DNA of 14,013 nucleotides from a virus, in UHGV virus genome UHGV-1734115. The stretch is one strand, 5' to 3'. Shown here one piece after another: positions 3,001-6,000 of the stretch. Made by a program: the position numbers. Every line of letters begins with the position of its first letter. Within the stretch, counting starts at the first letter, position 1.

Positions 3001-6000
3001 GTGTGTTGCTATGCCTAGCGTCGCCCATCTCACCTTCACGAAGAGCATCGCGTTCGGCGGTAAGATTGGCTATTTTGCTGTCTTTGCCTTCCAGCTCAAC
3101 GCGCAGCTTCCCTACCGTTAGCGCAATATCCTCGTTCTCCTGGTTGCGGGATTTGATGTATTGCTGGTTTCTTTCCCGTTCATCCAGTAGTGCCAGCACG
3201 GTAGCCGGGTTAGCCTCTGCTATGAATTCAGCGTTTGCATAAGCCTGAGCATCTGTTTCAATCAGGCAGTTAACATGACATTCTGCAATCACGCCACCGG
3301 GTTCTCCTTTCCATTTTTGGCAAACAAAAACTCCTGTTAAATTGCCGTGCTGGTTAACAGATGTATGCCCTACGATGTAGCTTCCTTTAGTTGCTTTCTC
3401 TGCCGCCTCACGCAGTACCTGATAGTTAATGTTGCTCACTGGTTGCCTCCTTTGCGAAGCTGGGCGGCGATATCTTCGAGAACGCCATCAGAGAATGAGC
3501 GGTCAAAATCGCCTTCCGGCGCATTAGCCATAAACTCAGTAGAGGTAAGAATCATCCGGGCAATATCCGCGGCGTTCTTCGCAGTATCATCAATAAAACC
3601 AGCTTCCCAGGCAGCCAGCATTCTGTTCGCCACAAAGTAAGCGCCCTCCTTGCGTGCTTCAGTCTTCACTTCAGCCAGGAAAGCATCGGTGGCTGGCATA
3701 TTTCCTGTTGCCTTCATGGCCTCCAAAATAACCAGAACGCCATCTCTCCCAACCGCCTCACAGATAACCTCGGTGTTGTCGCCAACAACATCGCAGAATG
3801 CCTGAACTGCCTTACGAGCCAGCGCACTCTCCGCCGCCAGCGCCGCGCACTTGGCCTCCGCTTCAGCAAATTTACGCACCAGATATTCAGCGTTTGTTTC
3901 GTTAACCTTTAAATCGCTTGGGATGCATTTACCTTTCAGGAATCCATCCATCTCAATTAGTGACATTTGTTTCATTTCTTCCCACTCCGCAACATCGCAT
4001 TCAGATATTTGTTTTGATTCACTGACGGAAAAGAATTTCTCTTAAGCAATTCCTCTCTCGATGGCATTGGCTTTACGCGTTGGCGAATAATCATTTCTGC
4101 CGGAAGAATGCCGGGATTGTATGCAAGTCCTCTCATGGTAAATTCCTCAGTCATTACTGATAGCGCCATAGCGTGAGCGGTAATTACGCAGGCGCGGGTC
4201 GATATATTCAGGGAATTTGTCTATTGTCGCTTTTCGCAACGGTCTCATTGCTGTTTCGTTTGTTCGGTCCTTCTCCTGTTTTAGCGCGAGTTGTATATCG
4301 CGTCGGTACATCCGTTCTGCTTTTGTTTCTGGTGTCAGAGCAAGAAACGCGTCGAAATTGTTTTTGATATTCTCCAGCACCTCCGCCTTGGAGCTACCGG
4401 AGCAGTTGCGCGGGTCATCCGCACCATACAGAGGCGCTGGCATAATGGGAGCCTTATTTTCAGTAATCAGAAAGCAGGGTAATCGTTCTGGCTGTAACCA
4501 TAATCATCTGCATGATTCTGGCTTACGTTTTTAGAGCGATTGTCTTTATCTTTGAGGCTGGCAACCATGTCGGCGATAGTTTCTGGTTGCTTGCCTTCTG
4601 CCTTTTCTTTAAGGGTTTGACCTGTTTGTGCAATAAACGGGATGCGTATTTCCATCTGGTAGCTGTCTGCGCCAGTCTTTTTGTTTGTGGTTAATACTTT
4701 CTGGAGCACTAACCCGATTTTCTTTCCATGAAATTCAGGTGCAACAAATTTACTGGCGGAAACCATATGCTGCGTTAATTGTCCAATCCCGGCACACCCC
4801 ATCATGGCGTGAACGACATTTGCGCCAAATTTGTTTTCCGTTCCGTCATTTTTCTGAACACAGACGCTAAGATATTGGATTTTACGGCCGTCGTCGGATT
4901 CTCCAGAAAACTCAATAAATTTGGCTCCTTTTTCTGATTGCTTTAGTTCTGCTTCAGTAATGGTAATGATATGGGCGCCAGTTTCGTTAATAAAACCACC
5001 TTGCCCTGCGGTCAGTGCTGCTTCTTCGTTATAAGTAAAAATCACGTTGCTCATGCGGCGTTTTCCTTAATTTGATGAACATTATTGATGCCGTAGTAAT
5101 CACAAACAGTGGCATCGACGAAAGAGAGATCGTTATCAATCTCATTGGAATCAAACATTCCCATTGGGGATTTGACAGTGTCTGCACCGTTGTTTTTCGT
5201 GGTGAAAAAGAACTGGTCATCGCGGGTAAGAGTGCGAAGAACTATAGTAAACATGCCTTCGACAGTGATTTTCTCGTCCAGCATTTTGCCGATAGTTTTC
5301 ATTTTCACGCGCCCCATAGGGGTTTCTTCGGTATGTGCAAGAAAATAGACTCTCAGGTCATCAGGTGCATCCTGTGCAGCCTTAATCACCTCCCATGCGT
5401 GGCGGCCTATCTCAGTAAATTTATCAAACGATTTTTCTTCTGAGCGGCGCATAAACTCATTGCTCATCACATACTGGAAGTCATCAACAATAACGATTCT
5501 TTTTCCGTATTCGTGAGCACGCTTAATTGCAGCAACTATTACGTCCCATTTGTCAGTGGTAACTACGGTTCCTTTTTTTGCTCTGGCATCCCATGCAAGC
5601 CAGTCTTTTGATTTAAATGGTAGCGGCTTGCCTATTGGTTTTATAAGTATTGCTTCCTCTGGATTGATATTTCTCATGCTGGTTGATTTTCCGGTGCCAG
5701 ATTCACCGAGTATTAATGTCGCAGTTCCCATAATTTGCCTCAGAATGGTAATTCGGATGGGCAGGAAAGAAATTCGCGCTCATTCATGCGCTCTCTTTGC
5801 GCCTGCCATAAACAAAGTTGTTTCTTTGATTTATCTCCCGCTTTACGCCAGTAACGAGCCTCAGCAATGTGATATTCTCTTTTTAATCGACTTAACTCTG
5901 GAGTTTTCGCCAGTTCTACCGGAATCATTTTGACCTCCATTTTCTGTAGGCTTCTACGGCTTCACGAAACATCTTTTCATCGCCAATAAAAGTGGCGATA

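Follow-up and report, generated by a model that had tools for sequence, protein, structure and literature searches.

What are the three small genes that lie packed between an Ea22-like gene and the recombination genes of a lambdoid prophage, and do they form one functional segment? The locus in question belongs to UHGV virus genome UHGV-1734115, of which we analysed a stretch of 14,013 nucleotides (hereafter, the window) comprising the immunity and early region of such a prophage. A preliminary description of the window recognised none of the three genes at 3436-4443 and left them as a block of unknown function. Homology now names all of them: they encode anti-RecBCD protein 2 (Abc2), a DUF2737 protein homologous to ORF56 of phage P22, and a relative of P22 EaE. 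The block is a known module whose members come from known families, and little about it is new. We consider it probable, if well short of assured, that it represents a P22/HK620-type abc2-orf56-eaE segment, in which a gene for taking over the host RecBCD enzyme is carried together with counter-defence cargo.

Three genes of known families

Three open reading frames (ORFs) of 98, 54 and 179 amino acids fill 3436-4443 exactly on the minus strand, and their coordinates and sizes had been given correctly from the start. Matches to Pfam and PHROG family profiles (E-values of 1e-32 to 1e-72), low ratios of nonsynonymous to synonymous substitution (dN/dS) and conserved synteny in more than 160 loci place all three far beyond chance. 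ORFs on the plus strand across 3347-4534 were rejected as shadows, being without family support and antisense to the conserved genes.

The first gene, at 4147-4443 on the minus strand, encodes the 98-residue protein. Its residues 1-98 align to positions 1-97 of the 97-position Pfam profile PF11043 (Anti-RecBCD_p2; 1.5e-35, 121.7 bits against a cut-off of 25), and it also matches PHROG 656 ('abc2 anti-RecBCD'; 5e-45) and, end to end over 1-98, P22 Abc2 in its complex with RecBCD (PDB 8b1t_A/8b1u; 3.7e-32). The identity is 61% to P22 Abc2 and 100% to the versions found in Stx2a-converting phages. Pro68 is retained in the window protein and conserved in all five Abc2 sequences compared, and the invariant parts are the N-terminus MPAPLYGADD and the C-terminal third. 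By this homology, the protein is a P22-type Abc2. In structural work on P22 Abc2, the protein was shown to bind RecC, with the helicase and nuclease of RecBCD remaining largely active, and Pro68 was placed in the active site of PpiB, a prolyl isomerase of the host that co-purifies; Wilkinson et al. (2022) think that Abc2 redirects RecBCD products to the phage recombinase (PMC9836394). The homologue in this phage would accordingly be expected to bind RecC and to alter RecBCD.

The position of abc2 agrees with its identity. The gene directly follows sak4 and the gene for a single-strand DNA binding protein (ssb), and it is placed equivalently in P22, SE1, HK446, HK75 and ES18. As the order sak4-ssb-abc2 is that of HK620 (PMC5928155), abc2 closes the recombination module and is not cargo beyond it. 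In the preliminary description, the whole block lay in the early-left operon, flanked by the Ea22-like gene on one side and the recombination module on the other; the placement in the operon stands, but abc2 has to be counted with the module, just as it is in P22 and HK620. Unmistakable homology to a function already known in phages, which had been named as grounds for refutation, was found for this gene.

The second gene, at 3972-4136 on the minus strand, encodes a basic protein of 54 amino acids that matches Pfam PF10930 (DUF2737; 6.5e-32, 109.6 bits against a cut-off of 25), core motif included, as well as PHROG 1117 (2.4e-37). It is 77% identical to P22 ORF56, which is encoded directly after abc2 in P22, and by these matches it is a DUF2737 family member and a homologue of ORF56. 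The reading frame has in-frame upstream ATG codons at 4169 (65 amino acids) and 4154 (60 amino acids), the former of which would make it overlap abc2 by 23 nucleotides. The Pfam and PHROG profiles start at Met12 of the 65-residue version, and most DUF2737 members in the databases have 54-55 residues. The family is narrow, comprising 142 clusters at 90% identity that are 74-100% identical to the window protein and come without exception from Escherichia, Salmonella or Shigella.

Related loci were compared in two sets, one anchored on DUF2737 (80 viral contigs, 77 of them with enough upstream sequence) and one anchored on Abc2 (84 loci, drawn from 78 viral contigs and six genomes, including Shimwellia and Intestinirhabdus). 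Purifying selection acts on each of the three genes, with dN/dS between 0.11 and 0.39: the pairwise value is 0.39 for abc2, the median for DUF2737 is 0.16 over 74 distinct DNA versions, which marks it as a real gene, and the first 40 codons of the 179-codon gene give 0.11 at a synonymous divergence of up to 0.96.

A mosaic protein of the EaE/Oad2 family

The third gene, at 3436-3975 on the minus strand, encodes the 179-residue protein, which matches PHROG 614 (7e-72), PHROG 14548 (1.7e-72) and, by BLASTP, P22 Eae (1e-59). A Pfam search returned no family at E <= 0.1, PF13935 included. Searches with tblastn revealed that the protein is a mosaic: residues 1-36 are common to many phages at more than 90% identity, and residues 72-179 match P22 Eae at 76% identity. 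The constant N-terminal module (residues 1-37; 3865-3975, minus strand) has a PHROG match of its own (PHROG 583, 7e-18) and occurs in 79 of the 80 DUF2737-anchored loci at 90-100% identity. The remainder of the protein is variable, and the genes following DUF2737 in these loci encode 65 distinct proteins of 42-301 amino acids.

Behind the N-terminal module come a short coiled coil, AEAKCAALAAE, and a first variable stretch (residues 53-92). Alignments then define a constant internal motif, MPATDAFLAEVKT (residues 93-105; 3661-3699, minus strand), in which P94-E102 are invariant among the window protein, Oad2 of phage HK446, HK75 gp28, P22 Eae, SE1 gp11 and the homologue in Cronobacter phage ENT47670; a second alignment likewise shows the motif unchanged. 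The second variable part is recognised by its similarity to P22 Eae (residues 106-172; 3460-3660, minus strand). Together with the motif it forms an EaE-type domain of about 85 residues with the pattern PATDAFLAE...GAYFVANRMLAAW.AGFIDDTAKNAADIARMILTSTEF..., and the identity to P22 Eae over residues 72-176 is 76%. Relatives of this domain amount to 246 representatives among 1.84 billion proteins and always stand at the C-terminus, behind varied N-termini. The protein closes with the constant tail LRKGGNQ and the stop codon (3436-3459, minus strand), a sequence that also supplies the following gene with its Shine-Dalgarno, AAAGGAGG, and its GTG start. An identical tail is present at the end of Oad2, HK75 gp28 and many other relatives. 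Across the family, a dozen or so mutually unrecognisable segments are found between the PATDAFLAEV motif and the tail.

Compared with Oad2, HK75, SE1 and P22, the window protein has the complete family frame, that is, the N-terminal module MKQM(S/T)LIEMDGFLKGKC..., the coiled coil, PATDAFLAEV and the LRKGGNQ tail. By this architecture, it is a member of an EaE/Oad2 mosaic family with a variable domain of the P22 EaE type. Of the checks proposed earlier, remote-homology search thus named all three families, whereas structure prediction gave low-confidence models. AlphaFold2 predicted the 179-residue protein, from a 30-sequence alignment, as all-helical with a mean predicted local distance difference test score (pLDDT) of 55 and a predicted template modelling score (pTM) of 0.29, too poor for a fold search. 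The DUF2737 model had three short helices (pLDDT 64) and found no neighbour by Foldseek in BFVD (best E = 2.5). Sequence searches of the PDB gave no credible match for DUF2737, nor for the 179-residue protein, for which designed helical repeats alone appeared, at E >= 0.035.

Gene junctions and exchange of cassettes

The preliminary description had all three genes linked by overlapping start and stop codons. Such overlaps do exist between DUF2737 and the 179-codon gene (ATGA, 3972-3975) and between the latter and the Ea22-like gene (GTGA, 3436-3439), but abc2 and DUF2737 do not overlap when the conserved start at 4136 is used. Here, the TGA stop of abc2 is embedded in TGAGGAATTTACCATG, which provides the GAGGAA Shine-Dalgarno and a 10-nucleotide spacer for the DUF2737 start, so that the ribosome-binding junction (4137-4149, minus strand) reads TGAGGAATTTACC ahead of the ATG. 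Of 80 loci, 75 have this 20-nucleotide junction unaltered, and the remaining 5 differ from it by a single change each. The stop-plus-10 spacing recurs in every one of the 77 DUF2737-anchored loci and in 72 of the 84 Abc2-anchored ones. The ATGA overlap of DUF2737 with the next gene is likewise seen in 77 of 77 loci, and also in HK446 and HK75.

The gene ends are alike, too. The LRKGGNQ tail with its AAAGGAGG Shine-Dalgarno also terminates many DUF2737 alleles. In about 25 of the 84 Abc2 loci, DUF2737 ends in this tail and an Ead/Ea22-like gene comes directly after it, which looks like a precise excision of the EaE-like cassette. To judge from these sequences, the junctions common to the gene ends seem to serve as joints for recombination in the abc2-eaE region. 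The LRKGGNQ junction sequence is present once in the window, and a search for direct or inverted repeats yielded nothing meaningful.

Linkage of DUF2737 to abc2

The association between the first two genes is tight in both directions. From the DUF2737 side, abc2 precedes in 77 of 77 loci, with an Abc2 that is 60-100% identical to that of the window, and the recombinase farther upstream is mostly Erf, Sak4 with SSB in nine loci, and undetected in a few. From the Abc2 side, a same-strand DUF2737 gene follows in 84 of 84 loci, whatever the upstream recombinase. Nine of these 84 loci have one extra gene between the two, resembling gp29 of HK446 (DUF5405), and ES18 has the inserted form as well, with gp45 in between. 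HK446 gp29 itself (3053-3343 of locus L086) is a 96-residue, Sf6 gene 24-like DUF5405 protein, and the insertion re-uses the 10-nucleotide junction. In a siphovirus from bat faeces, with an Abc2 of only 39% identity, a gp29-like gene, an unannotated DUF2737-like ORF and an EaE/Oad2-like gene follow in that order.

The third gene moves with the pair. The identical 179-residue protein accompanies abc2-DUF2737 beside three different recombinase sets, namely a Rad52-type protein with HNH, SSB and exonuclease, Sak4 with SSB, and Erf with gp31, which shows that the three genes form a unit of their own, not tied to any one recombinase.

Public phage records contain DUF2737 ORFs that had escaped annotation, each followed by an EaE/Oad2-like gene with a PATDA(F/V)L motif: Flyfo siphovirus Tbat2_3 (about 2600-2745 of L180) and phage ENT47670 (3998-4153 of L085). 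The ORF just upstream of the latter (3642-3965, 107 amino acids) has a C-terminal stretch that resembles, by eye, the helix-turn-helix part of P22 Abc1.

Such linkage raises the question of whether DUF2737 is a dedicated partner of Abc2. As a third 'Abc' component, it would make the block a two-protein RecBCD modifier plus an unrelated cargo gene, and it might stabilise Abc2, bind the conserved, disordered C-terminal third of that protein, or bind RecB or PpiB, thereby tuning the hijacked RecBCD. The unbroken association with its fixed 10-nucleotide spacer, the survival of the pair despite the gp29-like insertion and the persistence of a DUF2737-like ORF beside the most divergent Abc2 all fit this explanation, as does the report that Abc2 is unstable when expressed alone and that its residues beyond 66 are unresolved by cryo-EM (PMC9836394). 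However, DUF2737 also occurs where Abc2 does not. A shorter form that keeps the core, NKYLN included, is found without Abc2 in about 475 records of virulent Jersey-like phages and Kagunavirus, and in ENT47670 a DUF2737 (Pfam, 60.9 bits) stands without Abc2 behind RecT/exo. Moreover, near-identical DUF2737 copies are paired with Abc2 types only 60% identical to each other, so that there is no co-variation, and Abc2 can bind RecBCD by itself and is functional in E. coli in the absence of ORF56 (PMC5928155, PMC9836394). We regard a dedicated partnership as unlikely.

That the DUF2737 and EaE-like genes are dispensable mosaic filler, kept next to abc2 merely by linkage and by junctions that guide cassette exchange, appears to us a decidedly improbable explanation. 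The shared LRKGGNQ/AAAGGAGG gene ends, the precise absence of the EaE-like gene described above, the extremely mosaic content downstream of the N-terminal module and the P22 ea genes without assigned function in the phage annotations examined would all suit it. Filler would hardly be expected, though, to be under such strong purifying selection (dN/dS of 0.11-0.16, at synonymous divergences reaching 0.5-0.96 in the comparisons of the two genes), and DUF2737 is kept in every Abc2 locus examined, very divergent ones included. The family also has one member with proven activity, Oad2.

Relation to Oad2 and the OLD nuclease

OLD of phage P2 is reported to be an ABC-ATPase/TOPRIM abortive-infection tRNase that becomes active once RecBCD is missing or inhibited, and HK446 gp27, named Oad2, to bind OLD directly and block its activation as a tetramer; its authors call it related to P22 EaE (bioRxiv 10.64898/2026.07.10.737580). 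According to the HK446 record, the gp27 gene lies downstream of abc2 (gp30) and is coupled through ATGA to DUF2737 (gp28), a placement that makes it the positional equivalent of the 179-codon gene of the window. The two proteins match by BLASTP at 6e-30 with 39% identity. Between the internal motif and the tail, no alignable similarity between them was found in the variable segments. Over residues 1-78, Oad2 hardly differs from its inactive HK75 homologue, and the two diverge only thereafter, from which specificity is inferred to reside in the variable part. The window protein is thus a family member with a different 'warhead', for which the same target, OLD, cannot be assumed.

The least probable of the alternatives holds the EaE-like protein and DUF2737 to be developmental modulators of the lysis-lysogeny decision or of induction, like the proteins of the lambda exo-xis region and Ea22: the EaE-like gene adjoins an Ead/Ea22-like gene with which it has a coiled-coil segment in common, some close relatives (several database matches, and 4 of 83 proteins in a Pfam scan) are fused to Ead/Ea22 N-termini (PF13935), PHROG 368 covers both the EaE-like and the Ead/Ea22-like protein and EaD/Ea22 were studied earlier in lambda lysogenization (bioRxiv 10.64898/2026.07.10.737580), but the sole direct functional data in the family, those on Oad2, concern inhibition of an immune nuclease by physical binding, hypervariable segments in a constant frame suit an arms race better than regulation, and the 179-residue protein itself has no PF13935 match. 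Apart from the four fusions to Ead_Ea22, the Pfam scan of the 83 EaE-domain relatives showed one fusion to RNase_T.

A model of the segment

The sequence comparisons establish which genes these are, how the operon and its coupling signals are laid out, that the gene array is conserved and that purifying selection acts on it; the activities that follow are proposed. If the segment indeed combines RecBCD takeover with counter-defence, the block would be co-transcribed from PL after N, cIII, kil, sak4 and ssb, with its genes translationally coupled. Abc2 would bind RecC of the host RecBCD, recruit PpiB through Pro68 and stop RecBCD from acting as the Chi-regulated destroyer of linear phage DNA. 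The single-stranded products of RecBCD could then feed the phage annealase, in this case Sak4 with its cognate SSB rather than Erf. The EaE-like protein may bind and silence a host or prophage immune nuclease that punishes manipulation of RecBCD. Its target would probably differ from that of Oad2, because its variable domain is of the P22 EaE type and not that of Oad2. DUF2737, being small, basic, strongly conserved and encoded on the same message, would most likely be another host-directed accessory factor. The early guess of host-takeover or anti-defence functions thus holds for Abc2, a RecBCD hijacker, and is plausible for the EaE-like gene through the Oad2 family.

Several points weigh against this reading. 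The HK75 homologue, although 54% identical to Oad2, fails to inhibit OLD, and the trigger of OLD in the HK75 locus is Gp33, which alone matches the effect of the full recombination locus (bioRxiv 10.64898/2026.07.10.737580). Expression of Gp33 being sufficient, Abc2 is not needed to trigger OLD. A search of the window for a homologue of Gp33, the HK75/HK446 trigger, returned none, so the logic of trigger plus antidote is not demonstrated at this locus. The source on Oad2 is an un-reviewed preprint of July 2026. A hidden Markov model of the C-terminal domain of the window protein reached Oad2 only at E = 2.8 and did not detect the segments of Oad2 and HK75 gp28 (E > 0.3), and the two structure predictions yielded no fold information. 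The EaE-like gene is altogether absent from about a quarter of the Abc2 loci, and DUF2737, given its Abc2-less occurrence, need not act on RecBCD. Finally, oligonucleotide recombineering by Sak4 was not stimulated by Abc2 (PMC5928155).

A bolder version, to which we give limited credence, regards abc2-(gp29)-DUF2737-EaE/Oad2-like as a 'hijack plus counter-guard' cassette with exchangeable variable segments. Each segment would neutralise a different RecBCD-guarding or OLD-family nuclease, the domain in the window would be one such inhibitor, and DUF2737 would be indispensable as the third component, for instance by stabilising Abc2 or by masking the signal sensed by the guard.

Scans of all three proteins against NCBIfam and PADLOC gave nothing meaningful, which indicates that they are not known defence-system components, and none of the three peptides is present in the supplements of the accessory-gene screen of Silas et al.

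Operon context and neighbouring genes

On the minus strand, an S24-type repressor gene (9253-9957) and the gene for the N antiterminator peptide (7406-7750) are followed by a lambda cIII thermoregulator RNA (6126-6184; Rfam RF01804, 88.5 bits), which overlaps the cIII and kil ORFs (about 5925-6231). The thermoregulator RNA together with these ORFs confirms that the block lies inside a lambda-type PL operon. A small ORF at 5740-5940 occupies the position of hkaM of HK620, an equivalence of placement only. Then come the HK620-type recombination genes directly upstream of abc2 (4467-5731), namely sak4 (5051-5731, minus strand; PHROG 2872 'Sak4-like ssDNA annealing protein', 5e-108) and the gene for a non-canonical SSB (4467-5054, minus strand; PHROG 743 'single strand DNA binding protein', 5e-66). 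Between cIII and the hairpin at 1861-1840, the first good one on the minus strand, no convincing terminator was found on this strand, and the block is therefore read as part of the PL transcript. The plus strand of the window carries sieB and replication genes.

Directly downstream of the EaE-like gene, the Ead/Ea22-like gene (2609-3439, minus strand; 276 amino acids) matches Pfam PF13935 at 3e-34, and a DUF551 gene comes after it on the same strand. Residues of about 199-240 of its product form a C-terminal extension with a Walker-A-like motif, GFTGCGKS, and weak matches to APS kinase (E = 0.073) and PHROG 11761/31825. This protein would be an Ea22 N-terminal domain fused to a small P-loop domain.

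Other features lie farther away. The interval between repressor and N is a frequent site of exclusion and defence genes in lambdoid prophages. Here it holds two minus-strand genes of 227 and 111 amino acids (8126-9144); the 227-residue protein has a weak CCDC90-like coiled-coil match, and the region has no significant PADLOC match. A gene for an HNH_3 + AP2 homing-endonuclease-like protein (13318-13929, plus strand) directly follows the DnaB-type helicase gene. Near the left end of the window, a match to sRNA-Xcc1 (779-868, minus strand; Rfam RF02221, 62.9 bits against a gathering score of 53) sits between an antirepressor-like gene and a 242-residue ORF.

Significance and comparison with known systems

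With these assignments, three 'hypothetical' genes become a named module, and the recombination module no longer ends before them. As a hub, RecBCD is both a target of phages and an object guarded by abortive-infection systems, OLD and some retrons among them, and the gene next to the RecBCD hijacker abc2 comes from the sole family in which inhibition of OLD has been proven for a member. The domain of the P22 EaE type is thus, like the dozen other variants, a candidate inhibitor of OLD-family and related nucleases. Two leads stand out: the constant-frame, variable-insert design of the EaE/Oad2 family, and the linkage of abc2 to DUF2737, which singles out a 54-residue protein overlooked since the P22 abc sequence of 1987.

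The closest counterpart is the PL operon of P22, which has the order erf-abc1-abc2-orf56-eaE-orf45-eaF-eaD. The genes abc2-orf56-eaE are tightly packed in the same order on one strand in both phages, with identities of 61% for Abc2, 77% for ORF56 and 76% for the C-terminal domain of EaE. In contrast, Sak4 and SSB stand upstream in the window, where Abc1 and Erf are absent, so that the annealase alongside Abc2 is Sak4 instead of Erf. The EaE-like protein of the window has an N-terminal module that P22 Eae lacks, and orf56 and eae overlap by 13 nucleotides in P22 as opposed to the ATGA of the window. Set against the P22 Abc2-RecBCD structures (8B1T/8B1U; PMC9836394), the window Abc2, known from its sequence, retains the MPAPLYGADD N-terminus, Pro68 and the C-terminal stretch, whereas about 39% of its residues differ, mostly in the helical RecC-binding part (residues 13-66).

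The recombination genes themselves resemble hkaM-sak4-ssb-abc2 of HK620, with Sak4, a non-canonical SSB and Abc2 in the same order (Hutinet et al. 2018, PMC5928155). The Abc2 of HK620 is 94% identical to that of P22, while the window Abc2 is another sequence type, at 61%. With Oad2, the 179-residue protein has in common the ATGA-coupled position right after DUF2737 in an abc2-containing locus, the N-terminal module (about 34 of 38 residues), the coiled coil EAKCxxLAAE, the PATDAFLAEV motif and the QLRKGGNQ tail, but both variable segments are unlike. Lambda Gam and T7 gp5.9 offer a functional parallel, as they, too, neutralise RecBCD from an early operon, beside a phage recombinase. They are, however, unrelated proteins that block the site at which DNA binds, so that all activities of RecBCD are lost (PMC9836394).

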